Source of the DNA: a virus
Lineage: Duplodnaviria > Caudoviricetes
Strand: one strand, 5' to 3'
Length of the DNA stretch: 64,000 nucleotides
Virus record (IMG/VR): IMGVR_UViG_3300035182_002389
Coordinates: 64,001-128,000 of that record
The first letter of the stretch is position 1; each line of letters begins with the position of its first letter. A model generated the notes under the pieces. That model did not search any database and was not told the DNA's origin. It worked only from the letters and a program-made list of their open reading frames with translations. Of this stretch, positions 13,975-62,615 are shown in pieces. The position numbers were made by a program, and so were the translations under genes.

Positions 13975-14065
13975 CGCGAGACGGGACGAAAAGGACGGCC
14001 TTCGGCCGAGCACGGGCTTCGCCCGAGGACGCGCCTTCGGCGCGAGAACGGCCTGCGGCCGAGGC
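13975..14065 (+). repeat. dispersed repeat family C, copy 1 (tandem TTCG-loop mini-hairpins)
   Basis: GACGAAAAGGAC-GGCCttcGGCC-GAGCAC-GGGCttcGCCC-GAGGAC-GCGCCttcGGCGC-GAGAAC-GGCCtgcGGCC; recurs at 49568 and 61661. Confidence 0.85.
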
Positions 14066-14082
14066 GAAAAGGAACGACGAAC

Positions 14083-14466
14083 ATGACGTATGACGAGATT
14101 TCGCCGACCATGCGCCAGGCCCTCGCGACCTGGGAGGCGTTCCGGCGCCTCGGGTTCTCGGCCGCCGACATCTTCTCGATGATTGCGAAGACCCTCGCGC
14201 GCGAGGAGGACGGCCGCGTCGTCGAGGTCTTGGCCTTCTTCATCGCCCTCCGATCGCAGGGTCGAGAGTTCTCCATCACCATCGGCGAGATCGAGGACGC
14301 GGACGCGGCCGAAGCCGAGTGGGCCCGTGTCGCGAACGCTCTACCAGGCATGGACGAAGAAACGGTCCGCCGCATCTGGTTCGAGAGCGAAATCTGCGGC
14401 CGGCTCGTCGCGCTCGGTCAGTCGCTCGCGGCCAAGGGCTTTCACATCCCCATCCTCGGCAACTGA
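14083..14466 (+). CDS. hypothetical protein
   Basis: SD AAGGA; MTYDEISPTMRQALATWEAFRRLGF. Confidence 0.65.
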   Translation: MTYDEISPTMRQALATWEAFRRLGFSAADIFSMIAKTLAREEDGRVVEVLAFFIALRSQGREFSITIGEIEDADAAEAEWARVANALPGMDEETVRRIWFESEICGRLVALGQSLAAKGFHIPILGN

Positions 14467-14468
14467 AC

Positions 14469-14606
14469 ATGCTCGACGTCCAGAAGCTTCGCGAGGAGTT
14501 TGAGAAGGCCGCGGCGCTGCTCGCTTCGATGCCGCCGTGGTTTCAGACCATGAGAGCGAGGCGCCTCGCCTACCTCCAGTACATCGCGAACCAGAAGAAC
14601 CTGTAG
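14469..14606 (+). CDS. small hypothetical protein
   Basis: MLDVQKLREEF...; fills the gap between neighbours. Confidence 0.5.
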   Translation: MLDVQKLREEFEKAAALLASMPPWFQTMRARRLAYLQYIANQKNL

Positions 14607-14623
14607 GCCCGAGGAGCAAGACC

Positions 14624-14890
14624 ATGTGCGAGTGCATTCAGCGCGCGAACGAGATGTTCAAAGAGCACAACATTCGCATCGTCACGCCCATGACGATCGA
14701 CGACAAGCGCAGGCTTGGCCCGCTTGCGAAGGCGACCATCCTCACCGAGAGGCTCGACAAGAAGAAGCGCGGCAACCCGATGTCGCTGGTCGCGACCTTC
14801 TGCCCGTTCTGCGGCGTCAAGTACGACGCAGGCAAGGACGAAGACGTGGAGGTCATCGCCGAGTCAAAACCTCGCGCGAAAGTCGTCTGA
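14624..14890 (+). CDS. zinc-binding hypothetical protein
   Basis: SD GAGGAG; MCEC...FCPFCG. Confidence 0.65.
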   Translation: MCECIQRANEMFKEHNIRIVTPMTIDDKRRLGPLAKATILTERLDKKKRGNPMSLVATFCPFCGVKYDAGKDEDVEVIAESKPRAKVV

Positions 14891-14892
14891 TC

Positions 14893-15093
14893 ATGTCGAA
14901 GAACAAAATCGTCGCCGCGCTCGTGCACTTCATCAACTTCGGCATCAGCTCCGACAGCTACTACTCGTGCGGGGAGGGCAAAGAGCACCTCAAGACCGCC
15001 AAGGCCTTCTGGGACGATCAGCACCGGCTCTGCTTCACGATGAAGGGCAAGACCTACAAGTTCGCGTTCGAGTGCGTCGAGGAAGCGACGTGA
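14893..15093 (+). CDS. small hypothetical protein
   Basis: MSKNKIVAALVHF... Confidence 0.5.
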   Translation: MSKNKIVAALVHFINFGISSDSYYSCGEGKEHLKTAKAFWDDQHRLCFTMKGKTYKFAFECVEEAT

Positions 15094-15413
15094 AGGACCC
15101 CATGCCGAGAGACCTCGCCAAGCTCAAGCTCTTCACCGTTTCCGTTTCTCTGAACTTCGACATGGCCGTCTTCGCGGGCGACGAGAAGGAGGCTCGCAAG
15201 GTCGCGCAGCGGCACTGGTCGACCGACGCCGCAGGCCTCGCGGTCGAGCCCGATTTCATGCCCGTCGAGATGACCGAGCAACGCCACACGCGCGGCGACT
15301 GCGACCTCGACATGTTGCCGTGGGCCCCCGAGGGCACCATCTGCGAGAGCGGATGCGAGAACCCGCAGCGCACGCTCGACGAGTACCTGACCGAGCGCGG
15401 CCTCAAGGGATGA
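15090..15413 (+). CDS. hypothetical protein
   Basis: GTGA coupling; acidic. Confidence 0.55.
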   Translation: MKDPMPRDLAKLKLFTVSVSLNFDMAVFAGDEKEARKVAQRHWSTDAAGLAVEPDFMPVEMTEQRHTRGDCDLDMLPWAPEGTICESGCENPQRTLDEYLTERGLKG

Positions 15414-15417
15414 CGCC

Positions 15418-15843
15418 GTGTTCTTGCGCCACGTGAAATATCACTACGTCATCTACGGCGACGGGGACAGCAGCTACGGGCCCATCACGCCGAAGCGTCT
15501 GTCGCCGGGCGCCAAACGATTCTGGAACCGTTATGGGCTCGGGGATGCGGAAGAGGCCGTCGTCGCGTACGAGAACGGCAGGCTCGTCGGCTTTTTTCGC
15601 TTCTCGGTCGGTGAGAGGTTCCGTCTTCGCACCGATCCGATCGCCATCATGCGTCTGGTCGCGGGCGGCACGTGGGTCGACACTTCGGCGCGCCGGCGAG
15701 GGCTCGGCAAACGCATGTGGAAGTACGCCATCGAGCGTACGAAGCCTGCGGAGATCGACGTGTCCGTCGTCAGTCGAGGGGGAGGCGCGCTCATTCAGAG
15801 CCTCCAACGCGACTACCACACGCTTCGATGGGACACGTACTGA
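15418..15843 (+). CDS. GNAT-family acetyltransferase-like protein
   Basis: TWVDTSARRRGLGKRMW matches GNAT motif A (V..R.RG.G). Confidence 0.7.
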   Translation: MFLRHVKYHYVIYGDGDSSYGPITPKRLSPGAKRFWNRYGLGDAEEAVVAYENGRLVGFFRFSVGERFRLRTDPIAIMRLVAGGTWVDTSARRRGLGKRMWKYAIERTKPAEIDVSVVSRGGGALIQSLQRDYHTLRWDTY

Positions 15844-15873
15844 GCGGCAAGCGAAAGTGGTATCGTTTTCGCC

Positions 15874-16770
15874 ATGCTCCCGCACGGCACGATCTACCTC
15901 TCGGGCGCGAGGACCCGTACGCTCGACGCGCAGATGCGGTACGCGAACGACCACGCAAACACGTGGGACGAGGTGCCGCCCATCGGCATCTTGCTCACGC
16001 CGAAGACGGCCGACCGTGACGACGATCTGCGCCCCGGGATGCAGAACGTCTACCACTACGTCGGCATCGACAACGGTTGCTTCACGCCGAGCGGACGCGC
16101 GAGGTTCGCTCAGCTCGGAATGAGTGGCTACCTCGCGCTCGGACAGAGGGCCTTGTCGCTCTGGGGCGACCACGTGCTCTTCATCACGGCGCCCGACGTG
16201 CCGGGCGATTGGGCAGGCACCCTGCGTGCGAGCTTGCCTGTGCTCCCCGCCCTGCGAAGGGCGATGCCCCACTGCGCGGCCATCGTGCTTCAAGACGGCG
16301 CGACGCCCGCGAACATCCCGTGGGACGAGATCGATTGGGTCTTCATCGGGGGCTCGACCGCGTGGAAGGTGTCGGCCTTCGCGCACGCATGCTCAAAAGA
16401 GGCCCACCGTCGCAGAAAAGGCGTTCACATGGGGCGCGTGAACTCGCTCCAGCGCCTTCGGGTCGCAAGCGAGTTCGGGTGCACGTCGGCCGACGGGACC
16501 TACTTGCGCGAGGAGATGATCACGGGCGGCCTCGTCGGGCTCAAGAAGGCCTTGAACATCGCCGTCGACCTTCGAGACCCTCGCGATCGCGCGCGCGGGG
16601 CCAAGCTCATCAAGGAGGCGCTCGCCAAGTACGGGCCCGAGACCGTCGAGGGCCGGGCGATTCGCACGCCCATGCAGGCGTACGAGGCGCGCGCCATCGA
16701 GACGATCTTCACCTGGGCCCGCGACTCCTGGGCTCGGGCGGGCGGGCTACGGGCGCTGCACGGACGCTAG
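15874..16770 (+). CDS. TGT/DpdA-like (transglycosylase-type TIM-barrel) phage protein
   Basis: GIDNGCF, APDVPGD, LQDG, FIGGSTAWK, VHMGRVNS, SADGT motifs resemble phage tRNA-guanine-transglycosylase-like proteins; family recognised from memory. Confidence 0.55.
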   Translation: MLPHGTIYLSGARTRTLDAQMRYANDHANTWDEVPPIGILLTPKTADRDDDLRPGMQNVYHYVGIDNGCFTPSGRARFAQLGMSGYLALGQRALSLWGDHVLFITAPDVPGDWAGTLRASLPVLPALRRAMPHCAAIVLQDGATPANIPWDEIDWVFIGGSTAWKVSAFAHACSKEAHRRRKGVHMGRVNSLQRLRVASEFGCTSADGTYLREEMITGGLVGLKKALNIAVDLRDPRDRARGAKLIKEALAKYGPETVEGRAIRTPMQAYEARAIETIFTWARDSWARAGGLRALHGR

Positions 16771-17144: not shown

Positions 17145-17158
17145 AGGCAACCTCTTCT

Positions 17159-17379
17159 TCCCCGTTCCCGTTCCCGTTCCCGTTCCCGTTCCCAGCGCGC
17201 CAAAGGCGCGCGTTCCCGTTCCCGTTCCCGTTCCCGTTCCCGTTCCCGTTCCCGTTCCCGTTCCCAGCGCACCAAAGGCGCGCGTTCCCGTTCCCGACTC
17301 CCGAGCGAGACGAGATCGGGCAGCGGGAACGCTCGCTTCGCGAGCTGGAACGGGAACGCTCGCTTTGCTCGCTGGAACG
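17159..17379. repeat. dispersed repeat family B, copy 1: (GTTCCC)n arms plus GAGATCGGG...GGGAAC hairpin core
   Basis: about 5, 9 and 2 GTTCCC units separated by GCGCGCC-AAA-GGCGCGC hairpins, then GAGACGAGATCGGG...GGGAACGCTCGCttcGCGAGC. Confidence 0.9.
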
Positions 17380-17386
17380 AGGACGA

Positions 17387-17953: not shown

Positions 17954-18008
17954 GAGAAATCGGGAACGGGGACGGGAACGCTCGCTGCGCGAGCTGGAAA
18001 AGGGGACG
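17954..18008 (+). repeat. dispersed repeat family B, copy 2
   Basis: GAGAAATCGGGAACGGGGACGGGAACGCTCGCtgcGCGAGCTGGAA. Confidence 0.8.
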
Positions 18009-28571: not shown

Positions 28572-29519
28572 TTACAGCAAGTGCCCCGCGGCGATGTCGG
28601 CGGCAATGGCAACTTCGACCTTCGCTAGCTCCTGCACGTTCGTGACGATGACGCCCAGCTCGCGGTTGCGCGTCATCGATCCGGTCGAGAAGTTCACCGA
28701 GCCGATGTACGCCGCGGAGCCGTCCGCGAGGACGACTTTTGCGTGGATGTAGGGGCCGAGGCCCGAGTGTCCCGAGGATGGTGCGCCGCTCACATACACC
28801 TTGCCGCCCGCGGCCTTCACCATCGCGACGGAAGGGTTCGCGGCCGGAAGGTTCCCGGGCGCGTTCGCGACGACGAGGCGCACCTGAACGCCCTTTGCCA
28901 CCGCAGCGATGAGCCCTCTTGCGACGTCGTGGTCGCTGAACTCTTCGCCCTCGACGTCGAGCGTGTGTTTCGCCGACGCGATGAGCGTCATGATCTTCAG
29001 CTTCGCGTTGTCAGGCGCGACGACGAGCGCGCCCGAGGCGACGATTGGCTTGCCTGCGAAGTCGGCTGCGAAGATGGCTTCAGCTTCTGCAACATCAGCC
29101 GGGATCGTGTCGATGACGAGGTACTCGCGGTTGTGCATCGGCCCGGAGATGGACGCGTTCATCGTCATGATCCACGCGACCTTGCCGTCGAGGAGGACGC
29201 ATTTCTCGTGCGTGTACGCGAAATGCGGCGAGGCCCAAGCAACCGACACCTTCGCGCTCGTGAGCGCGGCGAACGCGAGAGAGTTCGGGCTCTCGCCCGG
29301 CGTCGAGAACGCGAAGTGCTCATTGAGCACGACCTTCACGTCGAGCCCTCGCGCGTGCGCGGCGATGATCGCGCCCAGCACCTCGTGCGAGGTGAGCATG
29401 TACATCGTGACGTGGACGCTTTTGTTTGCCGCGTCGATGGCTGCGATCAGCTCCGCGCCGTTATGGCCGTTCGGCTCGACGAGAATCGAGACGCCGCCCG
29501 CAGCCAGATCGTCGACCAT
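28572..29519 (-). CDS. phospholipase D superfamily protein (two HKD motifs)
   Basis: HEKCVLLD and HAKVVLAD...GSVNFS...NRELG. Confidence 0.9.
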   Translation of the reverse strand: MVDDLAAGGVSILVEPNGHNGAELIAAIDAANKSVHVTMYMLTSHEVLGAIIAAHARGLDVKVVLNEHFAFSTPGESPNSLAFAALTSAKVSVAWASPHFAYTHEKCVLLDGKVAWIMTMNASISGPMHNREYLVIDTIPADVAEAEAIFAADFAGKPIVASGALVVAPDNAKLKIMTLIASAKHTLDVEGEEFSDHDVARGLIAAVAKGVQVRLVVANAPGNLPAANPSVAMVKAAGGKVYVSGAPSSGHSGLGPYIHAKVVLADGSAAYIGSVNFSTGSMTRNRELGVIVTNVQELAKVEVAIAADIAAGHLL

Positions 29520-31709: not shown

Positions 31710-32027
31710 TCAACGCAACGACGACCGAGCCTCGGCGTAGTAGCGGTGCGCGAAGTCGTCGGCCATCGAAGCAAACTTCTCGACGTCCGAGCCCTCGATC
31801 TTGATCGGGTTGATGCCCGAGCCGAGGAGCCATTTCGTCCCGTGCTCGGGGAGCGTCGAGTAGTGGATCACGCTCGATGACGCGTCCATGTAGAAGTAGA
31901 GCTGCATCTGCCCGTCGGGCGACGTCGCGATAGAAGGCTTGCTCTTGGTCGCCTTCTTCGGGACCTTCCAGCCGCGCGCCTTCAGGGACAAGAGGATGTT
32001 GTTGATCGCGACGTCGATGGTCTGCAT
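31710..32027 (-). CDS. hypothetical protein
   Basis: 105-aa coding-like ORF. Confidence 0.6.
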   Translation of the reverse strand: MQTIDVAINNILLSLKARGWKVPKKATKSKPSIATSPDGQMQLYFYMDASSSVIHYSTLPEHGTKWLLGSGINPIKIEGSDVEKFASMADDFAHRYYAEARSSLR

Positions 32028-32033
32028 GGCGGC

Positions 32034-32363
32034 CTACTTCGAGCGGCGAAGGCTGCTCTTGTGCGACATCGGAATCGAGAGCGACAGCGGAGCGTCGCCT
32101 GCGCGAACATCGTACACGACAGTTCCCGGCGCGCCGACCTCGTCGTTCTTTCGCGACCAGCGAGCGAGCAACTGTCTCACCTTGCCGCGGACCTCTACGA
32201 CGTCGATGCGCGTTGTGTCGTCGCCGATGTTCGACGGCTCTTGGACGTGCACGTCGAACTCTCGGTAGAGACGGGCGAGATCCGAATAGCCCGTAGCGCC
32301 GGCGCCCAGATGACCGCGCGGAAAGTAGTAGAGCAGACCGTAGTTCGGAGCTTTGGGCGCCAT
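32034..32363 (-). CDS. hypothetical protein
   Basis: 109-aa coding-like ORF. Confidence 0.55.
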   Translation of the reverse strand: MAPKAPNYGLLYYFPRGHLGAGATGYSDLARLYREFDVHVQEPSNIGDDTTRIDVVEVRGKVRQLLARWSRKNDEVGAPGTVVYDVRAGDAPLSLSIPMSHKSSLRRSK

Positions 32364-32432
32364 GGGCGTCCGTCGTACGCGCTCAAGCGAGAAGCCTCAA
32401 CGCCGTCCACCAACCCCCACGGTTCTCTTCCA

Positions 32433-32972
32433 TCACGTCGCTGGAAGCGGCCGAAACCCGTACTTTCCGAGCGCGTAGAACATGAGCAACGCGCGGGCTG
32501 AGAGGAACGGAATCGCTGTCCCTTCGGTGCGCAAGTACGCCTGCGCCACCGTGATCGCGGGCAGCGCAAAGACCGTCTTCGTGCGCAGCGCAAAGGCGCC
32601 CGTGAGCGTCAGGTCGATCGCCCAATCAAGGTTTCCGCCCAGCTCCGAGGTCTGCCCCGTCGCCCGCGCGACTCGGCCGTCCGCTTCGTCCGCGGCGATG
32701 GAAGCCAATGCCCACCACGGCGAGCCGCCCGTGAGATAGGCGAGCCCGGCCACGTAGCCCGCGACGCTGATCGCGTTCGGCAGATTGAAGGGGCTCGGGG
32801 CAGGCTCGGCCGAGGATGCCGGCGGGCGCGCGGGACCGCCCACGCTCGATGTCACATCAGCGGTGGACGCGATGCCAGCGGTGGATGCGATGCCAACGCT
32901 CGACGTGGGGCCTCGCGGACGCAGCCAGTCGAATCCATAGCACGCAGAAAGGTCGGGTCTCACCGGCGCCAT
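32433..32972 (-). CDS. CDP-alcohol phosphatidyltransferase family protein
   Basis: NLPNAIS followed by the signature DEADGRVARATGQTSELGGNLDWAID (DxxDGxxAR-x8-GxxxDxxxD); TAGAAT 7 nt before the ATG. Confidence 0.85.
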   Translation of the reverse strand: MAPVRPDLSACYGFDWLRPRGPTSSVGIASTAGIASTADVTSSVGGPARPPASSAEPAPSPFNLPNAISVAGYVAGLAYLTGGSPWWALASIAADEADGRVARATGQTSELGGNLDWAIDLTLTGAFALRTKTVFALPAITVAQAYLRTEGTAIPFLSARALLMFYALGKYGFRPLPAT

Positions 32973-32998
32973 GGCATCCATTCTACCTGTGAAGATCC

Positions 32999-33544
32999 TC
33001 AGCGACCACGTCGGACTGACACGCTCTGCCACGAGCCCGCCATCGCGCGGCTCAACGGCATGCCGTGCAAGGATCCGCTCCACAAGCGCAACGGAGAGCG
33101 CTCGACGGACTCGATCGCCGAGAGGCGAAAGAGCGCGACGCTCCAGTGTCGATACCCCTCCGCACTGTCGTCGCAGATGACTGCGTCGACGCGGCGAGCG
33201 CGAAAGAACGGAGCGCCCTCGTACAAGTCGAGGTTCTCGTAGGTCGCGTGCTTCTCCCACTCCCACAGGGCCGCGCGCTCGCGCGTCGCGATGTGCTTCT
33301 GGAAGGCTCGAACCGAGGAGCGTTCGAGGTCGAGGATGTCGACGACGTTGCTGCTCGGTCGCAGCATGATCTTCCAGATCGTGCACGAGGGCTTCTGACC
33401 GTGGAACCTTGCGTACGCGTACGCGGCGATGGGGTTCGCCGTGAGCCAGAGGATGCCGTTGCCGTTGAGCGCGAGGCGGTCGTAGTCCTCGCACGTGCCG
33501 TGGTAGAGCGGTTGTCGCCAAACGCGGGAACGTGCGGAGGACAT
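32999..33544 (-). CDS. ADP-ribosyltransferase-fold-like protein
   Basis: LYHGT...GILWLTANPIAAYAYA... Confidence 0.5.
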   Translation of the reverse strand: MSSARSRVWRQPLYHGTCEDYDRLALNGNGILWLTANPIAAYAYARFHGQKPSCTIWKIMLRPSSNVVDILDLERSSVRAFQKHIATRERAALWEWEKHATYENLDLYEGAPFFRARRVDAVICDDSAEGYRHWSVALFRLSAIESVERSPLRLWSGSLHGMPLSRAMAGSWQSVSVRRGR

Positions 33545-33600
33545 GGTCGTTCAATCTGCGTTCGAGGCCGATGAGCAAGACAGGAAGAGAGCGAGAACGC

Positions 33601-33707
33601 TCGGGGGCTGCGCGCCCCCGAACCCCGCGCCACCTGCGGTGGGGCTCCTGTTGGGGCTCTGCCCCAAACCCCGCTGAGGGGCGCTCACAGCGCGCCCCTC
33701 AGACTCC
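33601..33707 (+). repeat. dispersed repeat family A, copy 1 (four-hairpin element)
   Basis: TCGGGGG-ctgcgcg-CCCCCGA; CCACC-tgc-GGTGG; TTGGGG-ctctg-CCCCAA; CTGAGGGGCGC...GCGCCCCTCAG-ACTCCC. Confidence 0.92.
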
Positions 33708-34718
33708 CTACTGCTGAAGCTCTTGCAGGCGCTGGTCGGCCATCTGCGCCAGCTCGCTGCACCCATTCGCGGCAGCCGCGTCGCGCGTCTGCTGGATGGC
33801 GCCCTGATTCTGAGAGTTCATCACTTGGTCGAGGACGTTGCGGTACGCGTCCGCGACGTAACCGTTCGTGCAGCCGACCTGGCCGAACGGCGTGTTGATG
33901 AGCGAGGCCTGCATGCGCTGCTTCGCGTACGTGGCCAGCTCGCTGCAACCGTTTGCTTGGGCGACGTTGAGCGTGTCCTGGAGCTGCGTCTGGTCGGTTG
34001 CCCGACTGACCTGATCGAGCACGCCGCGATACGCGGACGCCACGAGTCCGGCCGAACAGACGACCGGGCCGAAGGGCGTGTTGAACGCGAGCGACTGAAG
34101 CCGCTGCGTCGCTGCATCCGTGAGCGCGGGGCAGTTGTGCGACTGCGCGATGTCGATGATCTGCTGGAGCGCGTCCGCGTCCTGCGAATCGTGAATCCGG
34201 TCGAGGACGTGATCCTGGTCGTCGTACGTCTCGTTGTTCGAGCAGACGATTCGGCCCATCGGCGTCTCGATGGTGAACGCGAGCATTCGGTTGTCGATGG
34301 CCTGCGTCAGATCATCGCAGCCGAGCGATTGGGAGACGTTGCGCGCGTAGTTGAGGTCTTGCATGTTCGACGACGATCGCGCCCCGTCAAGCACGCTGCG
34401 GTAGGCGTTGAGCACGCTCCCGCTCTCACACGCGACCGGCCCAAAGGGCGTGTCGGTCGTCGCCACCGGCGTGGCCGGCGTCGGTTCGGCCGGCTTGGGC
34501 GTGTTGTGGATGACGTCGGGCTGCACGACGGGCGGGACATACGCGGGCGGCGCGGGCGGCGCAGGGAGGACGGGCGTGCCCGGGAGCTTCTGCGAGGGCA
34601 CGATGGGCGGAGCGGCTGCGGGCGCCGCCGCCTTCGACGATTTCGCGATGAGGACGACCGCTGCGATGGCCGCGATGCCGCCGCCGACGAACAGAATCTT
34701 CTTGGTGTTCGGGTCCAT
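33708..34718 (-). CDS. membrane-anchored protein with four 62-aa Cys-pair repeats
   Basis: ILFVGGGIAAIAAVVLIAK, Pro linker, 4 x TP(F/M)G..C...VLD...C..L. Confidence 0.8.
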   Translation of the reverse strand: MDPNTKKILFVGGGIAAIAAVVLIAKSSKAAAPAAAPPIVPSQKLPGTPVLPAPPAPPAYVPPVVQPDVIHNTPKPAEPTPATPVATTDTPFGPVACESGSVLNAYRSVLDGARSSSNMQDLNYARNVSQSLGCDDLTQAIDNRMLAFTIETPMGRIVCSNNETYDDQDHVLDRIHDSQDADALQQIIDIAQSHNCPALTDAATQRLQSLAFNTPFGPVVCSAGLVASAYRGVLDQVSRATDQTQLQDTLNVAQANGCSELATYAKQRMQASLINTPFGQVGCTNGYVADAYRNVLDQVMNSQNQGAIQQTRDAAAANGCSELAQMADQRLQELQQ

Positions 34719-36976: not shown

Positions 36977-37023
36977 CTCGGACTCAAGCCTATCAGAGCC
37001 AAATCGAATCGAGAGCGAGACGC

Positions 37024-37132
37024 TCGGGGGCTGCGCGCCCCCGAACCCTGCGCCACCTGCGGTGGGGCTACTGTTGGGGGCTCTGCCCCCAAACCCCCGC
37101 TGAGGGCGCTTTCAGCGCGCCCTCAGACTCCC
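37024..37132 (+). repeat. dispersed repeat family A, copy 2
   Basis: near-identical four-hairpin element; contains the stop codon of 37068..37709. Confidence 0.92.
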
Positions 37133-37709
37133 CGCCGACATACCCCCATTCGAGGATCGAGTCGCCGTTCGTGTAGAGCGTGCGCGCGGGGACGACCTTG
37201 CTCACGATGGCGTAGTGGCCGCGCATCGGGCCTTCGCCGTGTGAGGCGGCATACGCGCGGTCGAGCGCCACCCAATCGCCCGGGTTGATGGTCGCGCGCC
37301 GAACCTTCTCGGGCGGCGGCATGGCGCGCAGTTGCGCGAGCGAGGCCACGATCGAGTCGTAGAGAGCAGATTTGGAGTGCGCGCCGTAGACAGCCCTGCG
37401 CGACGGCGGGAGCTGTCCGCGACGAAGCAGAGACGCGCGGTCGGCCTCCATCTGACGGATCTGCGCATCGCGGTTCGCGGGCAGCTTGATCGTCGCGCGG
37501 TAGATGCGCACCGGGCGGTTCGGATGGCCCCGCATGCGGCGGACAATCCCCCACGTGACGAGGTCCGTGCCGTCGCCGACGCCGTAGTACCGAGGGCCAA
37601 GCGACGAGTAGACGTCCTCAGGGTAGACGCTGCCCGCCGTGAGGTCGTGCAGCGGTGCCGCCTCGCGGCCGGGCGCTCTGTGGTCGATCCGGTAGTCGTC
37701 GTTGCTCAT
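37068..37709 (-). CDS. ART-fold-like protein whose C-terminus runs into repeat A
   Basis: VRIYRAT...INPGDWVAL..YA..HG...EWGY; last 20 aa encoded by the repeat. Confidence 0.55.
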   Translation of the reverse strand: MSNDDYRIDHRAPGREAAPLHDLTAGSVYPEDVYSSLGPRYYGVGDGTDLVTWGIVRRMRGHPNRPVRIYRATIKLPANRDAQIRQMEADRASLLRRGQLPPSRRAVYGAHSKSALYDSIVASLAQLRAMPPPEKVRRATINPGDWVALDRAYAASHGEGPMRGHYAIVSKVVPARTLYTNGDSILEWGYVGGESEGALKAPSAGVWGQSPQQ

Positions 37710-37960
37710 GACGTCTTTCGACGAAGGATCGCGAGAAAGTAGCGCACGACATAGAGCCGCGCGCTCTCGGAGAACGTTGCGACCGAGCGGCCTTGCGGAC
37801 TTTTCGGTCGGAGCATGTCGATCTCGTTCAGGACGACGTCGATGGAGACGAGCTTGTGGCGCGCGATGGTCTCGATCGCCTCCCAGAACTCGGGCTCCAG
37901 CGACACGCTGGTGCGCTTGCCGCGAAGACTCACGTTGCGGACGTTGGCAGAGCGAGGCAT
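37706..37960 (-). CDS. ribbon-helix-helix domain protein (RHH_4-like)
   Basis: RNVSLRGKRTSVSLEPEFWEAIETIA...SESARLYVVRYF. Confidence 0.85.
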   Translation of the reverse strand: MPRSANVRNVSLRGKRTSVSLEPEFWEAIETIARHKLVSIDVVLNEIDMLRPKSPQGRSVATFSESARLYVVRYFLAILRRKTS

Positions 37961-38287: not shown

Positions 38288-38447
38288 GAGCGAAACGAGA
38301 GCGAGACGAGACGAGAGCGAGACGAGAGCGAGACGAGAGTGGGGGCTGCGCACCCCCACACCCCGCGCCACCTGCGGTGGGGCTACTGTTGGGGGCTCTG
38401 CCCCCAAACCCCCGCTGAGGGCGCTTTCAGCGCGCCCTCAGACTCCC
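38288..38447 (+). repeat. dispersed repeat family A, copy 3, with extended (GAGAC/GAGC) leader
   Basis: GAGAGCGAGACGAGACGAGAGCGAGACGAGAGCGAGACGAGA then the four-hairpin element 38339..38447. Confidence 0.92.
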
Positions 38448-38975
38448 GCCGTTGCGGGCCTTGAGCGTCGCGATCTTCGACACGAGCGTGTCGTAGCCGC
38501 GCGGCGTCGGGACGGCCTTCGGAGCGGTCGCCATCATCGGACCCGGCACGCTGCTGGAGGGCGCGGCGACGGGCGCGGGGGCCTGCATGAGCACCTTGAA
38601 CTCGTCGACGACGGCCTGGAGGTTCTGCACGGCCGTCATCAGGTCGGCGATGACCTTCGAGAAGTCGGGGTTGCTCTGCTTCAGGTCGGCGGCGGCCTGC
38701 ACGGAGGCCTGCAAGGCGTCGACGGCGCTGTTGACCGCGAGAACGCTCTCGTCGAACTTCGCCTGCGCGACGGCCTGCTTGTCGGCCGGGATGGCGGGCT
38801 TGATGCTGCCGAACACGACCTCGGCGATCGAGAGGATGGTGCTGATCGACTGGATCAGGCTCTCGGTCTGCGCGACCGGGTCCTTCTGGAAGTTCGACCA
38901 CCACGTCGAGCAACTGGTGAGCGAGAGCACGGGGACGATGAGCGCGATGGCGGTGAACTTGTAGAGCTTTCGCAT
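38427..38975 (-). CDS. putative lipoprotein, coiled-coil
   Basis: MRKLYKFTAIALIVPVLSLTSC lipobox-like; stop lies inside repeat A. Confidence 0.7.
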   Translation of the reverse strand: MRKLYKFTAIALIVPVLSLTSCSTWWSNFQKDPVAQTESLIQSISTILSIAEVVFGSIKPAIPADKQAVAQAKFDESVLAVNSAVDALQASVQAAADLKQSNPDFSKVIADLMTAVQNLQAVVDEFKVLMQAPAPVAAPSSSVPGPMMATAPKAVPTPRGYDTLVSKIATLKARNGGSLRAR

Positions 38976-46663: not shown

Positions 46664-47236
46664 TCAGCCCTGTGCGGTGTTGGAGGCCCAGAGGACTTCC
46701 TGCGACGGACCGTAGACGACGAGGTTGCCGTCGTCCTGCATCGCGAGGAGCGCGCCGGGATGGCCGTCTGTCCCGGTTGCCCAAAGGGCGGCTCCCGCGT
46801 CGTTGTAGACGACCGCATTGCCGTCCTCTTGCATGATGAGGAACGACTTTCCGTCGCTCCGCGTGTCCGAACTCCACAGCGCCGCGCTGCCTGCGTAGAG
46901 CACGAGGTTGCCGTCCGACTGCATCGTCAGGTGGTAGGCCCCGTTGCAGGAGGCCATGGTGCTGCCGTTGTTCACCCTTTGCATCGCCGAGATGTGCGCG
47001 CCGCCGCCCGTGCAGTACGGGTTCGTCGGCACGCCCGGCACGGGACCGGCCGGCGCAGGGGCCGGCGCAGGGGCCGGCGCAGGGGCCGGCGCGGGAGCCG
47101 GCGCAGGGGCGCTGAGCACAATCCTCTTCGTGATCGAGGGCATGGCCACGAGCGCGGGCTTCTTGTTCTTCGAGTGCAGGTAGTACCCGACGACCGCGAG
47201 CGCCACGCCACCGCCGACGAGGTAGGAGGTCTTCAT
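46664..47236 (-). CDS. membrane-anchored bulb-type (mannose-binding B-lectin) domain protein
   Basis: three QxDxNxVxY motifs (QSDGNLVLY, QEDGNAVVY, QDDGNLVVY); TM plus (PA)n linker. Confidence 0.9.
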   Translation of the reverse strand: MKTSYLVGGGVALAVVGYYLHSKNKKPALVAMPSITKRIVLSAPAPAPAPAPAPAPAPAPAPAGPVPGVPTNPYCTGGGAHISAMQRVNNGSTMASCNGAYHLTMQSDGNLVLYAGSAALWSSDTRSDGKSFLIMQEDGNAVVYNDAGAALWATGTDGHPGALLAMQDDGNLVVYGPSQEVLWASNTAQG

Positions 47237-47268
47237 GGTCGCCATCGTACCACGGCGATCGCCCGCAT

Positions 47269-47283: not shown

Positions 47284-47335
47284 TGAGCGCGATTGAGCGT
47301 TTGACGTCATCCAAATCCGAATCCGAACCGCTGAA

Positions 47336-47459
47336 CGAGACGAGCGAGAGAGCGGGGGCTGCGCACCCCCACACCCCGCGCCACCTGCGGTGGGGCCACT
47401 GTTGGGGGCTCTGCCCCCAAACCCCCGCTGAGGGCGCTCTCGGCGCGCCCTCAGACTCC
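47336..47459 (+). repeat. dispersed repeat family A, copy 4
   Basis: GA-rich leader plus the four-hairpin element. Confidence 0.9.
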
Positions 47460-47481
47460 TGCCGTGATACCCTACCCTTCA

Positions 47482-48060
47482 ATGGCCAAGCGGGCGATCC
47501 TCCCCTACGTGCTCGGCGGAGCGGCGCTCCTCGGCGTCATCGTTCTTGCACGCCGAAGCAGCGCCCAGGCGCTCGCCCCAAGTCCGAGCGTGCGCACGTG
47601 GCCCGTGGTCCCCAACCGGGGCACCATCAGCGGGTTTGGGGCTCCGCGCCCTGCGGGAAAGTACCCCGCGCGCTACCACGCCGCCGTGGACGTCGGCGCG
47701 CAGGACGGGGACAAGGTCGTCGCGATCGACGACGGCGAAGTGCTCAAGCTCGTCACGGGCTACCAGATTGGCGCAGGCCTTCAAGCGGTCGCCATCCGTC
47801 ACCCCGACGCCGACTACATCTACGCCGAGATCCAGGTGACGGCGGTGCCCGGCCAGCGTGTCAAGGCGGGCGACGTCATCGGCGTCGTGCGCCAGAACGA
47901 CTCTGGTCCGGGGCACCAGATGCTTCACCTCGAAGCGTGGCAGACCGGGATGGTGCCGGACGCTTTCAAACCGTGGTACGTGGGCCAGGCCGCGCCGCCG
48001 GGCCTGCTCGACGTAGGCAAGATTCTCGCGCCCCTCGCGAACACGGGAGTGAAGCCGTGA
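47482..48060 (+). CDS. M23 family metallopeptidase with N-terminal TM
   Basis: YHAAVD (HxxxD), GQRVKAGDVIG, MLHLE. Confidence 0.88.
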   Translation: MAKRAILPYVLGGAALLGVIVLARRSSAQALAPSPSVRTWPVVPNRGTISGFGAPRPAGKYPARYHAAVDVGAQDGDKVVAIDDGEVLKLVTGYQIGAGLQAVAIRHPDADYIYAEIQVTAVPGQRVKAGDVIGVVRQNDSGPGHQMLHLEAWQTGMVPDAFKPWYVGQAAPPGLLDVGKILAPLANTGVKP

Positions 48061-48088
48061 CCTTCATCCGAGCTGTTGAGAAGATCGC

Positions 48089-48199
48089 TCGGGGGGTTGC
48101 GCACCCCCCGAACCCCCGCGCCACCTGCGGTGGGACTTTTGTTGGGGCTCTGCCCCAAACCCTGCTGAGGGGCGCTTCCAGCGCGCCCCTCAGACTCCC
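48089..48199 (+). repeat. dispersed repeat family A, copy 5
   Basis: four-hairpin element with compensatory variation. Confidence 0.9.
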
Positions 48200-48217
48200 T
48201 GCCGCGGGAGTGAAGCC

Positions 48218-48997
48218 GTGAGCCGCTCTCTTTCCGTCAAGGCCTCGCGCTGGTCAACCACGGAGATCGCCATGGCGGTCGGCGGAGGACTCCTTGCTGT
48301 CGCGGCTTTTGCGATCGCGAAGAAGACCTTCGAGCAACGCCCCCTCGCGGTCGGCAACTACTTCTTCCCGTTCCACGACGCCGAATACCTCAGCCCCGGG
48401 CAGAGTCTGGGTGGACAGGCCTTCGTCCCTCCCGGCGCGCGAGACAACGCCCGCCTCCTCGTCTACCTGCACGGCAACAACGACGGCGGCATGATGCACG
48501 GCGGGATGGGCGCGACCGACACGGCCTACGACCTTCGCAAGATCGTGCCTTCGGACACCATCGTCGCGGCGCCCAGCCAGACGCGAAACGCCTCGGGCGC
48601 GGGGCTCTGGGCGGGCTTCAACCTCGACGAGTTCGTTGCCGCGGTCGAGCGCGCGACAGGGGCCACGATCGACAAATCGCGCGTGATTCTCATGGGCCAC
48701 AGCGGCGCCGGATGCAGCTCGGTCGGCGGCCTCTTCGGCAAGCTCGGGGTCATCAAACCGCAGCTCGTCGCCGTCGTCGACGTCTGCGCGGGGCCCATGT
48801 ACGGAGAGGCATACGGCAGGCTCGCCGAACAAGTTCCCGTGCGCGTGTTCTACCAAACGCGCACGTGGTCGCGAGACTTCGCGGGCTTCCAAGCGGGCTT
48901 GAGGGGCCGCGCGACCTTCGAGGAGGTTCAGACCCCAGCCGGGCAGAGTCCCCACAGCGCCATCGTCCCCATCGTCGCGAAGATGGTGCTCACGTGA
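48218..48997 (+). CDS. membrane-anchored alpha/beta-hydrolase
   Basis: TM; LLVYLHGNN; nucleophile elbow GHSGAG; C-terminal His (PHSAI). Confidence 0.75.
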   Translation: MSRSLSVKASRWSTTEIAMAVGGGLLAVAAFAIAKKTFEQRPLAVGNYFFPFHDAEYLSPGQSLGGQAFVPPGARDNARLLVYLHGNNDGGMMHGGMGATDTAYDLRKIVPSDTIVAAPSQTRNASGAGLWAGFNLDEFVAAVERATGATIDKSRVILMGHSGAGCSSVGGLFGKLGVIKPQLVAVVDVCAGPMYGEAYGRLAEQVPVRVFYQTRTWSRDFAGFQAGLRGRATFEEVQTPAGQSPHSAIVPIVAKMVLT

Positions 48998-49005
48998 GTC
49001 TCCCC

Positions 49006-49158
49006 CTTCCCGTTCCCGTTCCCGTTCCCAGCGTGCCGAAGGCGCGCGTTCCCCCTTCCCGAATCCCGCGCCGAAGGCGCGTCTCGGTCCTGCGAGCCCC
49101 CACAAGACGAGATCGGGAACGCTCGCTGCGCGAGCTGGCAACGGGAACGGGGACGGAA
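49006..49158. repeat. dispersed repeat family B, copy 3
   Basis: (GTTCCC)n arm with GCC-GAA-GGC hairpins, then AGACGAGATCGGGAACGCTCGCtgcGCGAGC..GGGAACGGGGAC. Confidence 0.88.
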
Positions 49159-49160: not shown

Positions 49161-49511
49161 ATGAGAAAGCTCACCTTCTCGCACGACGACCCGTGGCCGG
49201 ACGGGCTCGTCGTGAAGTTCTACCTCGTGCCCTTTCCTTACCGCCGCAAGCCCGTCATCACCGTGCGCGAGGAGGCGGCAAGGCCGCAGCGCATCGCAGA
49301 CGTCCCCATGACTCTGCTCAACGCGTCACAGCGCGGCGTGACGGACACGGGGCTCGCCAAAGCCCACAAGGTGACCGCCCTTCCTCGCGCGTACGAGGAA
49401 GAGGACGGCCGCTACACCATTGCCGACGGCCACCACCGCGTCGTTGCCGCGTGGCTGCGCGGCGAAGATCAGGTCCGCATTCGCATCATCGGACTGCCTC
49501 GCAAGAAGTGA
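49161..49511 (+). CDS. ParB/Srx-like small protein
   Basis: GRYTIADGHHRVVAAWLRG. Confidence 0.7.
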   Translation: MRKLTFSHDDPWPDGLVVKFYLVPFPYRRKPVITVREEAARPQRIADVPMTLLNASQRGVTDTGLAKAHKVTALPRAYEEEDGRYTIADGHHRVVAAWLRGEDQVRIRIIGLPRKK

Positions 49512-49567
49512 GACGAGATCGGGAACAGGAACGCGCCTTCGGCGCTGGGAACGGGAACGGGAACGGG
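49511..49567 (+). repeat. dispersed repeat family B, copy 4
   Basis: GAGACGAGATCGGGAAC..GCGCCttcGGCGC-TGGGAACGGGAACGGGAACGGG. Confidence 0.88.
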
Positions 49568-49656
49568 CGAGACAAGACGAAAAGGACGGCCTGCGGCCGA
49601 GCACGGGCTTCGCCCGAGGACGCGCCTTCAGCGCGAGGACGGGCTTCGCCCGAGGG
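49568..49656 (+). repeat. dispersed repeat family C, copy 2 (fused to B copy 4)
   Basis: GACGAAAAGGAC-GGCCtgcGGCC-GAGCAC-GGGCttcGCCC-GAGGAC-GCGCCttcAGCGC-GAGGAC-GGGCttcGCCC. Confidence 0.88.
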
Positions 49657-49657
49657 T

Positions 49658-58440: not shown

Positions 58441-58489
58441 CCTCGAAGCGTAGACGATCCCGATCCGCTTGTCGCAAGCCGCACAGCAC

Positions 58490-58611
58490 GGAGAACGAGA
58501 ATCGCTCGGGGGCTACGCGCCCCCGAACCCCGCGCCACCTGCGGCGGGGCTATTGTCGGGGCTCTGTCCCGAACCCCGCTGAGGACGCTCACGGCGCGCC
58601 CTCAGACTCCC
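58490..58611 (+). repeat. dispersed repeat family A, copy 6 (most diverged)
   Basis: TCGGGGG-ctacgcg-CCCCCGA...TCGGGG-ctctg-TCCCGA...CTGAGG...CCTCAG-ACTCCC. Confidence 0.88.
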
Positions 58612-58627
58612 GCCGTCATAACAACTC

Positions 58628-59635: not shown

Positions 59636-59636
59636 G

Positions 59637-60104: not shown

Positions 60105-60155
60105 AGAACGAGCGAAGATGATGTAGAGTCCCACCTCGGGGAAGGCTCGGGAGAC

Positions 60156-61124
60156 ATGGCCGAACATCTCATTTTCGACGGGCACAACCTTGCCGTGCGG
60201 TGCGCGCACGCCATCGAGGCGGCAGGGCTCACGAACGCGGACGGCGTGCCGACCGGCGAAGCGTTCGCCTTCCTCAAGGCCCTCGGCGGCTTCAAGACGC
60301 GCTTCCCACTCGCGAAGGTCACCGTCGTGTGGGACGGGTCGAGCCACAAGCGCAAGGCCGTCTTCGACGGGTACAAGGCCAGCCGCGGGATGCTCCGCAA
60401 GACCTTCCCCGTCGAGTACCTGAAGGGTCTTCTGCCCTTCCTTTCCGTTCGTCAGGCCATGAGCCCGACCGACGAGGCGGACGACGTCATCGGCGTCCTC
60501 GTGCGCGTTCGCTCCAGCGCAGAGCGAGATCGGGAACGCTCGCCTTCGGCGAGCTGGGAACGGGAACGGGAACGGGAAGAAGACCGCTTCACCATCGTCA
60601 CGACCGACTGCGATCTCCTTCAAACCGTCACGCCGAAGGTCCGCGTCCTCATGCCGCCAGCGGGCGCTGCAAAAGATCGCCGCGAGACCTTGTACGGCGA
60701 GATCGAGGTGCTTGCCGAGTACGGCGTGCCTGTCGGCCAGCTCCTCGACCTTCGCGCGCTCGCGGGAGACGTCTCCGACGAGATCCCCGGCGTGCCCGAG
60801 CTGGGGCCCAAGCGCGCCGCAAAACTCCTCACCTTCCACGGATCACTCGACGCCGTCTTCGAGGAGGCGCTGCGTGACAAGGCTCGCAAGCGCAAAGGCA
60901 TCCTCGCCTCGCCGATGACGGACCTTCAGCGCAAGAACCTGCGCGAGCACGAAGGAATCGTTCGACGCAATCTTGCGATCATGCGCCTCTCGGACGTCGA
61001 CGAGATCACGTACACCGAAGGCGCTTTCAAGGCTCTTCAAGCGGCCGTGCTTCTCCAGAAGCTCGACATCAAGGTCGACCCCATCCTCGACTTGTTCTTC
61101 CCGAAGCAGACCGCGTTCGCGTAG
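60156..61124 (+). CDS. stand-alone 5'-3' exonuclease/flap endonuclease (Pol I N-terminal type)
   Basis: IFDGHNL, VVWD, YKASR, EADDVIG, TTDCDLLQ, GDVSDEIPGVPELGPKRA (H3TH). Confidence 0.92.
   Translation: MAEHLIFDGHNLAVRCAHAIEAAGLTNADGVPTGEAFAFLKALGGFKTRFPLAKVTVVWDGSSHKRKAVFDGYKASRGMLRKTFPVEYLKGLLPFLSVRQAMSPTDEADDVIGVLVRVRSSAERDRERSPSASWEREREREEDRFTIVTTDCDLLQTVTPKVRVLMPPAGAAKDRRETLYGEIEVLAEYGVPVGQLLDLRALAGDVSDEIPGVPELGPKRAAKLLTFHGSLDAVFEEALRDKARKRKGILASPMTDLQRKNLREHEGIVRRNLAIMRLSDVDEITYTEGAFKALQAAVLLQKLDIKVDPILDLFFPKQTAFA
60522..60581 (+). repeat. dispersed repeat family B, copy 5, in-frame inside the exonuclease
   Basis: GAGCGAGATCGGGAACGCTCGCCttcGGCGAGCTGGGAACGGGAACGGGAACGGGAA = ERDRERSPSASWEREREREE. 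Confidence 0.88.
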
Positions 61125-61161
61125 CGGTGCTTCAGGGCGTACGCTTCCTTTCGAGGTAAGC

Positions 61162-61350
61162 ATGCCCAACAGTCGAACGCGCATTTGCTCACTCACGTGT
61201 CCCGAGCGCGTCGATTGCGAGGTGTGCGGCAAAAAGCTCTGCCACGCGCACGAGCCTCACCACGCAGATGGCTCCGTCGCAAGTTTTTCCGACGGCCACT
61301 ACCTTACGCCGACAGGCGTCGTCTGCGTCGCGCGTCACGCGCGAGGATGA
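61162..61350 (+). CDS. small Cys/His-rich protein
   Basis: CEVCGKKLCHAH; SD GAGGT. Confidence 0.45.
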   Translation: MPNSRTRICSLTCPERVDCEVCGKKLCHAHEPHHADGSVASFSDGHYLTPTGVVCVARHARG

Positions 61351-61351
61351 G

Positions 61352-61633
61352 TCAGTCGTCTTCATCGACGGAAATCCACCATCCCTCGGCGTGCTTGAAG
61401 CCCGCAGGGACGTGCCAGACGTAGAGCGGGTCGCCTTTGCGCGATCGCCCCGTCGTCAAAGAGGGGCGAACCGAGACGACGTAGTACGTGCGCGTCGGAT
61501 CTTTGCCGGCGACGCTCTTCGCGAGCGCTGCGAGCAGGCGCTCTTCGTTGCCTGCGCCAACCTCATGCGGACCGTCCACGATGGTCGAGTTCTTTACGCC
61601 GTGGACGACGACCGCGAGGGCTCTTTTCGACAT
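61352..61633 (-). CDS. hypothetical protein
   Basis: TAAAAT 6 nt before the ATG. Confidence 0.6.
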   Translation of the reverse strand: MSKRALAVVVHGVKNSTIVDGPHEVGAGNEERLLAALAKSVAGKDPTRTYYVVSVRPSLTTGRSRKGDPLYVWHVPAGFKHAEGWWISVDEDD

Positions 61634-61650
61634 GGGCGTATTTTACTTTG

Positions 61651-61756
61651 AGACGAGACAAGAGCGAGACTCAGACGAAAAGAACGACCTTCGGTCGAGC
61701 ACGGGCTTCGCCCGAGGACGCGCCTGCGGCACGAGGACGCGCCTTCGGCGCGAGGA
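61651..61756 (+). repeat. dispersed repeat family C, copy 3
   Basis: GA-rich leader, GACGAAAAGAAC-GACCttcGGTC-GAGCAC-GGGCttcGCCC-GAGGAC-GCGCCtgcGGCAC-GAGGAC-GCGCCttcGGCGC. Confidence 0.88.
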
Positions 61757-62485
61757 TTAGCTTAGCCAGTTCTGCACGGCCTGAAAGAGCCGAGGGGCCT
61801 TCCTCTGCATCGCGGAAGGGTCGAGCGCCCACCACGCGGCGGCATCCATCGCGCCCTCGAAGTTGCCCGCGAGCGCGTGGTAGGCCGTGATGGGCCGGTT
61901 CATCGACCCAAGGACTGCAATGACCTCTCGACCCGCCTCGGGGTTCAACGAGAAGGCGGCGTGGGCAGCTTCGTGCGCTGCGACCTTGCTGCCGCCGTGC
62001 ATCCGCGAGCCTGCGATCTCCGTCATCACGGGCAGGTGCGCGTTGATGACCGTCGCGCGGCCCGCGTGACACTCGCCAGAAGAGGTCGAAGAGCCCTCGA
62101 TGACGAGGAACTTGATGCGGATGCCGCGAAAGACGCGCCGCGCCACGATCATCGCTTCGCGTAGCAGCTCGCCGCCGCCGTCCATCGGGCGCCAGAGCCT
62201 CGCTTTTCCGAGCACTGGAGCCCACTTCTTCCAGCGCTCGACGTCGAGCGTCCACTTCGCGAGCGCGCGCGGCGGTCCGAGCACGGCGCCCACCGACCCG
62301 TTGCGACCTTGGTAGACGAGGTAGCCGTCCTTCAGGTCGTAGCCTGCGATGGCCGGCGCGAACGTGTCTTCGGTGTCGAAGGACTCCGCGTAGACCTTGC
62401 CGACGCCTTCGACGCGCACCCATCCCGCGGAGCCTTCCAGGCTCTTCTTCGCTCGCTTGCGAAGGGTGTCAGGGGTGAGCGGCAT
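61757..62485 (-). CDS. HExxH metallopeptidase-like protein
   Basis: VAAHEAAHAAF. Confidence 0.6.
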   Translation of the reverse strand: MPLTPDTLRKRAKKSLEGSAGWVRVEGVGKVYAESFDTEDTFAPAIAGYDLKDGYLVYQGRNGSVGAVLGPPRALAKWTLDVERWKKWAPVLGKARLWRPMDGGGELLREAMIVARRVFRGIRIKFLVIEGSSTSSGECHAGRATVINAHLPVMTEIAGSRMHGGSKVAAHEAAHAAFSLNPEAGREVIAVLGSMNRPITAYHALAGNFEGAMDAAAWWALDPSAMQRKAPRLFQAVQNWLS

Positions 62486-62524
62486 CTTCTGCTCATTCTG
62501 CGTACGTCAGGGCTCGCTGTCGAT

Positions 62525-62539
62525 GACTTTCAGTAAGCC
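62525..62539. promoter_or_regulatory. dyad motif
   Basis: GACTTTCAGTAAGCC. Confidence 0.7.
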
Positions 62540-62549
62540 AGCCGCCCGA

Positions 62550-62615
62550 AACAAGATCGGGAAACGCTCGCTGCGCTCGCTGGGAACGGGAACGGGAACG
62601 GGAACGGGAGCGGGC
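62550..62615 (+). repeat. dispersed repeat family B, copy 6
   Basis: AACAAGATCGGGAAACGCTCGCTGCGCTCGCTGGGAACGGGAACGGGAACGGGAACGGGAGCGGG. Confidence 0.85.

Follow-up and report, generated by a model that had tools for sequence, protein, structure and literature searches.

Mobile repeats that form small hairpins are a familiar feature of bacterial genomes, but have hardly been described in viruses. Fungal mitochondria harbour mobile GC clusters and double-hairpin elements, which are tiny, GC-rich and geneless and lie between genes or, occasionally, in frame within them. Bacterial systems of the REP/REPIN-RAYT (REP, repetitive extragenic palindrome) and IS200/IS605 type are characterized by short GC-rich hairpins, a conserved 5' tag, many intergenic copies occurring as singlets and inverted doublets, and a strand-biased orientation unrelated to transcription. 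Targeting of the lagging-strand template is known for IS608 and ISDra2 (PMC6006769, PMC5027513). Rickettsia palindromic elements (RPEs) are found in frame and free of stop codons in unrelated conserved enzyme genes, and also between genes (review PMC10969869). In T4-type phages, the promoter-bearing stem-loop repeats termed PeSLs are dispersed between genes in variable regions, at sites of indel and replacement differences (PMC2839356, PMC4122927). The attC sites of integrons are imperfect palindromes recombined as folded single strands, with one orientation per array that is tied to replication (PMC5371416). Here we describe three families of hairpin repeats, A, B and C, in a stretch of 64,000 nucleotides (the window; bases 64001-128000) of the 202,518-bp IMG/VR record IMGVR_UViG_3300035182_002389 of an uncultured bacterial virus. 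Coordinates refer to the window unless marked as genome positions, which are those of the record. The repeats resemble REP/REPIN and IS200 elements in form and polarity, RPEs in their in-frame insertion and PeSLs in marking mosaic boundaries. [quoted passage not shown]

Comparison with relatives of 87-97% identity, in which sites are empty at at least ten loci, indicates that the elements are recent insertions. In contig L158, obtained from an unrelated ENA sample (87% nucleotide identity), the genes of an M23 peptidase and a hydrolase are joined by a GTGA stop/start overlap. In the record, this overlap is split by a plus-strand family A insertion at 48061-48221, comprising 144 nt plus a 17-nt target duplication, with the duplicated bases at 48044-48060 and 48205-48221. 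The intact GTGA junction in L158 confirms the target duplication. The site of the plus-strand A copy at 47333-47470, which is flanked by divergent genes and lies upstream of the M23 peptidase gene, is empty in L158, too, with merely a 4-nt microhomology at the junctions; two relatives in all are empty there.

Further empty sites were found in three contigs of ENA sample ERZ1426824 and in one of sample ERZ27248036, for which the evidence consists of gene coordinates and spacings. The gene spacings of the ERZ1426824 contigs exclude seven of the elements, i.e. the C copy at 61650, the B unit at 62549, the A copies at 36995, 38303, 47333 and 48061 and the B pair at 49005. At the C site the gap between the genes amounts to 123 nt here vs 8 nt in this relative, and at the B site to 172 nt vs 105 nt in both relatives, a difference of 67 nt that equals the length of the element. 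The genes flanking the B pair at 49005 overlap by 4 nt in the ERZ1426824 relative, and the pair is probably absent from it. At the A 36995 site there is no gap, and A 38303 is missing together with two small genes, so that the flanking genes abut. Close relatives differ in the elements themselves as well. In L145 (98% identical) the A 36995 site holds the leader and hairpin 1 only, the leader of A 38303 is shorter than here, and 954 nt of unrelated genes lie between both A sites (window 37048-37959). L144 (93-96% identical) contains 305 unrelated nt at the A 33572 site and lacks about 1 kb with two small genes (window 32027-33020). The intervals 32027-33020 and 37048-37959 mark a region of high gene turnover. 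Contigs of four DNA sequencing runs, compared over 43.5-63 kb, exhibited only small indels in B and C elements, but were too fragmented at the repeats for clean empty-site joints.

Three or four copies are located in frame inside enzyme genes. The plus-strand B unit at 60520-60578 lies in frame in a 5'-3' exonuclease gene, to which it contributes 19 codons. An exonuclease homologue of the ERZ1426824 lineage (94% identity over aligned columns, 89% by BLASTP) lacks exactly these 19 B-encoded residues, and they are likewise missing from an outgroup exonuclease of 41% identity. The insert contains one more hexamer in a relative of 97% identity. Thus, the exonuclease copy exhibits the RPE-like trait of an in-frame, stop-free insertion in a conserved enzyme gene that is absent from the orthologues. 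The outgroup argues against a precise deletion from an occupied ancestor, for the exonuclease copy only. Further in-frame copies are a 150-nt B pair in a metallophosphatase gene (genome 54173-55180) and an A-like copy in the gene of an 800-aa VWA-like protein, where it is accompanied by a local dip of the GC content at third codon positions (GC3). Spliced inserts were ruled out for the in-frame copies, as their lengths are multiples of three and they are free of stop codons. The suggestion of the preliminary description that the repeats are REP-like mobile DNA is supported by the empty sites, the one target duplication and the in-frame copies.

The elements were 99.97-100% identical across six independent assemblies, which rules out an assembly artefact. 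The record has a G+C content of 65%, is classed as linear in IMG/VR and is 94% complete according to the CheckV estimate. A codon-bias gene caller predicted 323 genes, almost all of them on the plus strand save for a mixed-strand block which occupies most of the window. The gene calls near the elements match independent calls on identical contigs.

The families were searched on both strands with nhmmer, using a profile made from six A copies and corresponding profiles for B and C. All six A copies of the window (33572, 36995, 38311, 47333, 48069 and 58476; E 1e-37 to 1e-43) and all three C copies (13972, 49562 and 61660; E about 1e-26) were found on the plus strand, confirming what had been claimed for these two families. 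The corresponding claim for B, that all six cores read on the plus strand, is true for the leader-bearing singles. A search for the 11-mer core (at most one mismatch, both strands of the window) yielded six matches on the plus and none on the minus strand, with 1.5 expected by chance, but the match at 21416 is a chance match within a gene and belongs to no element, and minus-strand arms do occur in pairs. The B profile detected them at 17182, 17254 and 49018, where they form the left arms of head-to-head pairs; they possess their own leader variant with one additional T and therefore escape the 11-mer search. The sixth B copy of the preliminary description was probably the interrupted core at 17311.

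Altogether, the window contains 12 single loci, all of them plus-oriented (p about 5e-4, hand-calculated). Six of them lie between two minus-strand genes, two between plus-strand genes, two between divergent and one between convergent genes, and one within a plus-strand gene. The gene calls thereby bear out that the repeats occur between convergent, divergent and tandem genes of either strand. In the entire genome we detected 31 loci, of which 25 are singles (19 plus, 6 minus) and 6 are pairs. Family A proper (7/7) and family C (6/6) are exclusively plus-oriented, and so are 19 of 21 leader-type singles (p 2e-4). The leader 9-mer GAGACGAGA occurs 11 times on the plus strand and once on the minus strand. 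Between minus-strand genes there are seven plus and no minus singles, between plus-strand genes six plus and three minus singles. These counts indicate that orientation is independent of transcription, so that the earlier statement of a polarity regardless of local transcription holds, all seven singles between minus-strand genes being on the plus strand.

All families are built from the same kinds of modules, namely a GA-rich leader, hairpin stems and hexamer linkers or tails. The leader is a variable run of GAGAC/GAGCGA-type units. Each arm contains one to four perfect GC stems of 5-10 bp, mostly with triloops, which on the leader strand are mostly TTC or TGC and on the opposite strand GAA or GCA, closed by C-G. 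The hexamers (e.g. GGGAAC, GAGGAC) vary in copy number, and runs of them were found at about 10 loci on the plus and 7 on the minus strand of the genome. Successive C hairpins are joined by linkers of the sequence AGGA or AGCA, and GGGAA is repeated in the tails of B. Arms are present singly or as head-to-head pairs forming one long quasi-palindrome. Family A possesses four hairpins, whose stems co-vary or lengthen on both arms together; in a subfamily, A', hairpins 3 and 4 are nearly identical to those of A, whereas hairpins 1 and 2 differ and the leader is missing. Folding z-scores were about -4.2 to -4.6 for family A and the B pair; the pair at 49006-49152 folds into one branched hairpin of -44.4 kcal/mol (z -4.6). 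Mismatches in the stems (two C-A in C, one G-T and one A-C in A) are too few to tell which strand is folded.

The individual loci are as follows. The first C copy (13972-14066, plus strand, E 4.8e-26) consists of the GA-rich leader followed by four triloop hairpins, which fold into stems of 5-6 bp with 3-nt loops; it is located between two plus-strand genes and ends 17 nt upstream of a start codon. The full B element at 17160-17377 is a head-to-head pair between minus-strand genes, in which minus arms (17182-17226, 17254-17297) face plus arms (17312-17355, 17348-17377), with runs of hexamers on both strands. A single B unit follows at 17955-18003 (plus, E 1.5e-9), flanked by two minus-strand genes. 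Three plus-strand A copies lie between minus-strand genes at 33572-33722 (leader and four hairpins), 36995-37140 (overlapping the 3' end of gene 37068-37709) and 38303-38455 (with an expanded GAGAC/GAGCGA leader). The second full B element, at 49005-49157, is again a head-to-head pair folding as one long branched hairpin, and its right arm extends into the ribosome-binding site of gene 49161-49511. Directly adjoining each other, a B unit and a C copy occupy 49510-49657 (plus) between convergent genes; this locus varies in its number of hexamers and showed a 6-nt deletion at 49522 in three sequencing runs. The last A copy (58476-58622, plus, E 5e-37) and the last C copy (61650-61756, plus) both lie between minus-strand genes, and a single B unit (62549-62615, plus) is situated between divergent genes.

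Several results weigh against the reading favoured here. Polarity is not absolute, given six minus singles and six pairs in the genome. The minus singles are four A' copies (genome 19, 3679, 3988 and 11256) and two left-arm singles (genome 47535 and 55185). None of them is located beyond 56 kb (rank test p 7e-4), but the dependence of orientation on position hinges on the left-end A' cluster, which could be a local amplification; without A' the p-value is 0.19. Left of 90 kb there are 6 minus vs 8 plus singles, right of it 11/11 have the plus orientation (Fisher p 0.02). If a switch is placed at 90 kb, 17 of 25 singles agree with it; with the best switch, anywhere from 4 to 48 kb, 22 of 25 do. 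No repeat of the three families is located beyond 142 kb, leaving the right 60 kb empty. The flanks are inconsistent, too, with a 17-nt duplication at one A copy and a 4-nt microhomology at another, and a systematic search for flanking direct repeats of at least 9 nt returned only the 17-nt case. This inconsistency is unlike any single known transposase. Copies may not represent independent events if some arose via recombination into an existing copy. Finally, the assembled part comprises the first 202.5 kb only. It has no terminal repeats, and its left end starts with a run of about 20 C and continues directly inside a minus-oriented A' copy (genome 1-77), which points to a probable assembly break at a repeat, the true left end probably being absent.

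With respect to replication, the preliminary description had named mixed orientation within one replichore as evidence against its interpretation; in the left half exactly such a mixture was found (6 minus vs 8 plus singles). A flip of polarity at an origin or terminus, proposed there as a check, does not occur at the zero crossing of the base skew near 80-100 kb. The intergenic GC skew declines linearly from +0.06 on the left to -0.14 on the right, and third-position skews of plus- and minus-strand genes show the same trend after removal of the coding-strand effect. This course of the skew suggests replication from both ends. Pfam scans covered 102 proteins of at least 150 residues from the first 128 kb of the record and revealed a single-strand DNA-binding protein (SSB), a UvrD-type helicase, a flap exonuclease, a Dam-type methyltransferase, an SMC-like ATPase, RtcB and RlaP. 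The sole DNA polymerase match was DNA_pol_B_2 of the protein-primed type (genome 39343-39987, E 1.7e-27); PolA and classical PolB are absent from the record. In phi29, polymerases of this type initiate at either end of the DNA, with displacement of one strand (PMC4974454).

A partner enzyme, for which an HUH nuclease had been proposed, was sought in six-frame translations of the whole 202-kb record. The Y1 HUH transposase profile (PF01797) gave no match at E <= 1, while it was positive in 10 of 14 control genomes. Searches for TnpB and reverse transcriptase returned no match, and the tyrosine integrase profile (PF00589) none at E <= 0.1. No transposase was seen among the 102 Pfam-scanned proteins. 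The failure to find a mobilising enzyme is a further point against an insertion element, but about three quarters of the scanned proteins have no Pfam match, which makes this negative weak either way.

In the reading favoured here, arms have lately been inserted at junctions between genes and, in frame, within genes. Leader and hexamer numbers change fast, and the elements by now coincide with recombination breakpoints between strains. The plus bias of the singles might be fixed at DNA level when a copy is made, most likely by copying one strand of single-stranded DNA (ssDNA) or by template switching of the nascent strand. The virus is expected to expose plentiful ssDNA, since its sole polymerase is of the protein-primed, strand-displacing type. 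A link of polarity to replication is possible, and if polarity follows replication at all, it does so only loosely. The elements are probably a new viral variant of the mobile-hairpin-repeat theme whose polarity is set when they are copied from or into ssDNA. A more specific version, i.e. spread via ssDNA exposed by protein-primed strand displacement, perhaps without a dedicated transposase and for example by template switching at stable hairpins, appears quite unlikely to us. According to it, the pattern along the genome, with minus copies at the left end, then pairs, and plus copies in the middle and on the right, would record the displaced strand.

The relationship to the described systems is one of partial likeness. 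A, B and C resemble REP/REPIN-RAYT and IS200/IS605 in having hairpins, a conserved 5' leader, six head-to-head pairs and a strand bias unrelated to transcription, but there is no Y1 HUH gene in the record, the GTAG-type tag is replaced by a run of GAGAC-type leader units, and family A has four hairpins. IS200/IS605 elements make no target duplication, whereas one of 17 nt was found here. No common target word was seen at the insertion sites, in contrast to the palindrome-associated transposable elements (PATEs) of the IS200/IS605 type, whose insertion takes place 3' of a fixed 4-5 nt target. Furthermore, the host is a virus with a protein-primed polymerase and shows no polarity switch at the midpoint of the skew. 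RPE-like are the hosts of the in-frame copies, i.e. the exonuclease, the metallophosphatase and the VWA-like protein. RPEs are bacterial, about 150 bp long and encode a conserved peptide, whereas the viral elements measure 57-150 nt and belong to several modular families. No polarity rule is known for RPEs. PeSLs combine a strong sigma-70-like promoter with a working terminator and follow the genes; no promoter or terminator signature was found for the elements described here, and their orientation is independent of the genes. Orientation is independent of gene orientation as in attC arrays, but there is no tyrosine recombinase and no array with one site per cassette, and the copies are dispersed and also located inside genes. 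In contrast to classical MITEs, which have terminal inverted repeats and a target duplication of fixed length, such repeats are absent from families A and C, inverted arms being restricted to full B and C pairs, and the flank duplications measure 17 nt, 4 nt or none. The mitochondrial GC clusters belong to a different type of genome and have different sequences. The elements thus lack defining traits of the REP/REPIN-IS200, RPE and PeSL systems alike, having no HUH gene, variable flank duplications and no promoter or terminator.

Recombination could explain part of these observations in another way. The repeats might be boundary modules, i.e. PeSL-like patches of homology that mainly serve, or owe their persistence to, cassette swaps between co-infecting genomes, with an orientation inherited via recombination into existing copies. 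Breakpoints relative to genomes of 95-98% identity do lie at or inside A copies. The unrelated 954 nt between A sites in L145 have one breakpoint just after hairpin 1, L144 contains other DNA at the 33572 A site, and L128 joins the 48061 A copy to a homologue of a gene 53 kb away. Moreover, the A copies form clusters (at 33.6/37.0/38.3 kb and at 47.3/48.1 kb) within a mixed-orientation region of high turnover. However, both A copies flanking the M23 peptidase gene are separate simple insertions with conserved gene order, B and C copies are found inside genes or in 8-nt gaps, the promoter/terminator signature of PeSLs is absent, and L128 is a metagenome contig of 1.5 kb that is possibly chimeric at the repeat. 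We therefore regard boundary modules as unlikely. A function as polar DNA signals, with hairpins on the displaced ssDNA serving as priming (ssi/sso-like), pause or translocase-guiding sites and hence bound to a single direction with respect to replication or packaging, seems improbable. Such a function would agree with the protein-primed polymerase, SSB, helicase and flap exonuclease of the virus. The GAA/GCA loops closed by C-G opposite the leader belong to the very stable d(cGNAg) mini-hairpin type; mini-hairpins of the d(GCGAAGC) type are extraordinarily stable in DNA (PMC13037366, PMC3201870), but are a structural motif and not a genetic element, sharing with our repeats the loop class on the strand opposite the leader. 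The confinement of minus singles to the left 56 kb together with the 11/11 plus singles right of 90 kb would also fit a displaced strand carrying the GNA loops. Essential priming, pausing or packaging signals, as considered in the preliminary description, nevertheless fit poorly with elements that are present or absent among close relatives, lie in frame in enzyme genes and do not occur in the right 60 kb. Furthermore, of the 14 singles left of 90 kb, 8 have the 'wrong' orientation, and hexamer runs occur on both strands (about 10 plus and 7 minus loci).

At the RNA level, the repeats could act in plus-strand transcripts as arrays of processing or stabilising hairpins, or as decoys with Shine-Dalgarno-like or CsrA-like AGGA/GGGAA motifs. 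The AGGA/AGCA linkers of C and the GGGAA repeats of the B tails would suit such a role, and several copies supply the purine-rich ribosome-binding site of a start codon (13972 for 14083, 49107 for 49161 and, in genome coordinates, 28660 for 28727). The majority of the viral genes is located on the plus strand, too. Yet in the case of seven singles both neighbouring genes run antisense, copies are found between convergent as well as divergent genes, no promoter-like site adjoins them and no Rfam family matches them; the in-frame copies are translated and not removed, and the elements are dispensable in relatives. For these reasons a role in RNA is doubtful in our view. One might suspect chance, or a bias arising from the definition of the families, because each family is small and the '6 of 6' of B hinges on an 11-mer carried by right arms only. 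Given that profiles searched on both strands yield 7/7 for A and 6/6 for C genome-wide, with the leader-type singles biased to the same strand, this explanation is extremely improbable.

No match to Rfam 15 at gathering score was found on either strand of the 64-kb window. Promoter-like sites (2 vs 1.1 expected) and terminator-like sites (14 vs 10.5 expected) were not located at any element; canonical terminators and promoters were ruled out, as there is no T tract and no enrichment. The families are present in other assemblies of the same virus and in near relatives, but were not found in other IMG/VR contigs or in representative prokaryote genomes. Exact B and C patterns were detected in no other viral contig, and two IMG/VR contigs share only the 19-mer of A hairpin 2. 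More than 120 genome contigs, mostly of Acidobacteriaceae, contain this 19-mer, too; they are unrelated, since the A profile matches only the short hairpin in them. A four-unit hexamer run gave 12 scattered matches in genome contigs, none of them a B element, and hence no sign of a host-borne source in representative prokaryote genomes. A metagenome scan with a two-part A pattern retrieved a single contig of 1.5 kb, L128. Megablast of 24 kb against a phage collection found no match, a scan of viral contigs with the exonuclease as the only query protein retrieved no relative, and several identical-protein look-ups gave identical strains only. The distant relative L001, whose exonuclease is 41% identical, contains other tandem arrays and none of families A, B or C.

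Occupied and empty sites coexist in close strains from public metagenomes, so that insertion is caught in the act, in part in frame in enzymes of replication and repair. If the bias reflects ssDNA intermediates, the elements offer a handle on the replication of a large linear genome and on transposase-independent or new DNA movement; if spread via ssDNA were true, DNA mobility would have a new route, and the repeats would intrinsically report how a 200-kb protein-primed genome replicates. In practical terms, such repeats break assemblies, mark mosaic boundaries of strains and can pass for regulatory signals.

Some further features of the genome were noted. A D12-class (Dam-like) adenine methyltransferase is encoded at genome 61339-62181; GATC occurs 1365 times in the genome vs about 650 expected from base composition, and is present in the B leader. 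The SMC/RecF-like ATPase (window 12133-13083) and the metallophosphatase (genome 54173-55180) could form a hairpin nuclease similar to SbcCD/Mre11-Rad50. RtcB RNA ligase (E 1e-84) and the RlaP-type nucleotidyltransferase, at genome 13768-15174 and 30067-32388, suggest an RNA-repair set. Adjoining C and B insertions, a small Cys-rich open reading frame (window 61125-61351; in identical contigs a minus-strand call of 58 aa) occupies a 227-nt gap vs 13 nt in a close relative, and is thus a gene-sized insertion. The protein encoded at window 28572-29519 has two PLD-like domains (PLDc_2, E 7e-41) and may be a phospholipid enzyme or a Nuc-type nuclease. ARAGORN called a 95-nt tRNA-Pro(CGG) at window 47005-47099, which is probably false, as it overlaps a 12-nt tandem repeat (47048-47110) in a lectin-like gene (46664-47245). 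Long Lys/Ala-rich coding repeats with AAGAAG/GCC periodicity, resembling histone-H1-like or AlgP-like tails, are located in two genes at window 1555-2170 and 63188-63725. In metagenome runs the depth over 62379-63000 was 40 to 1360 times, indicating that similar low-complexity sequence is common in those samples.

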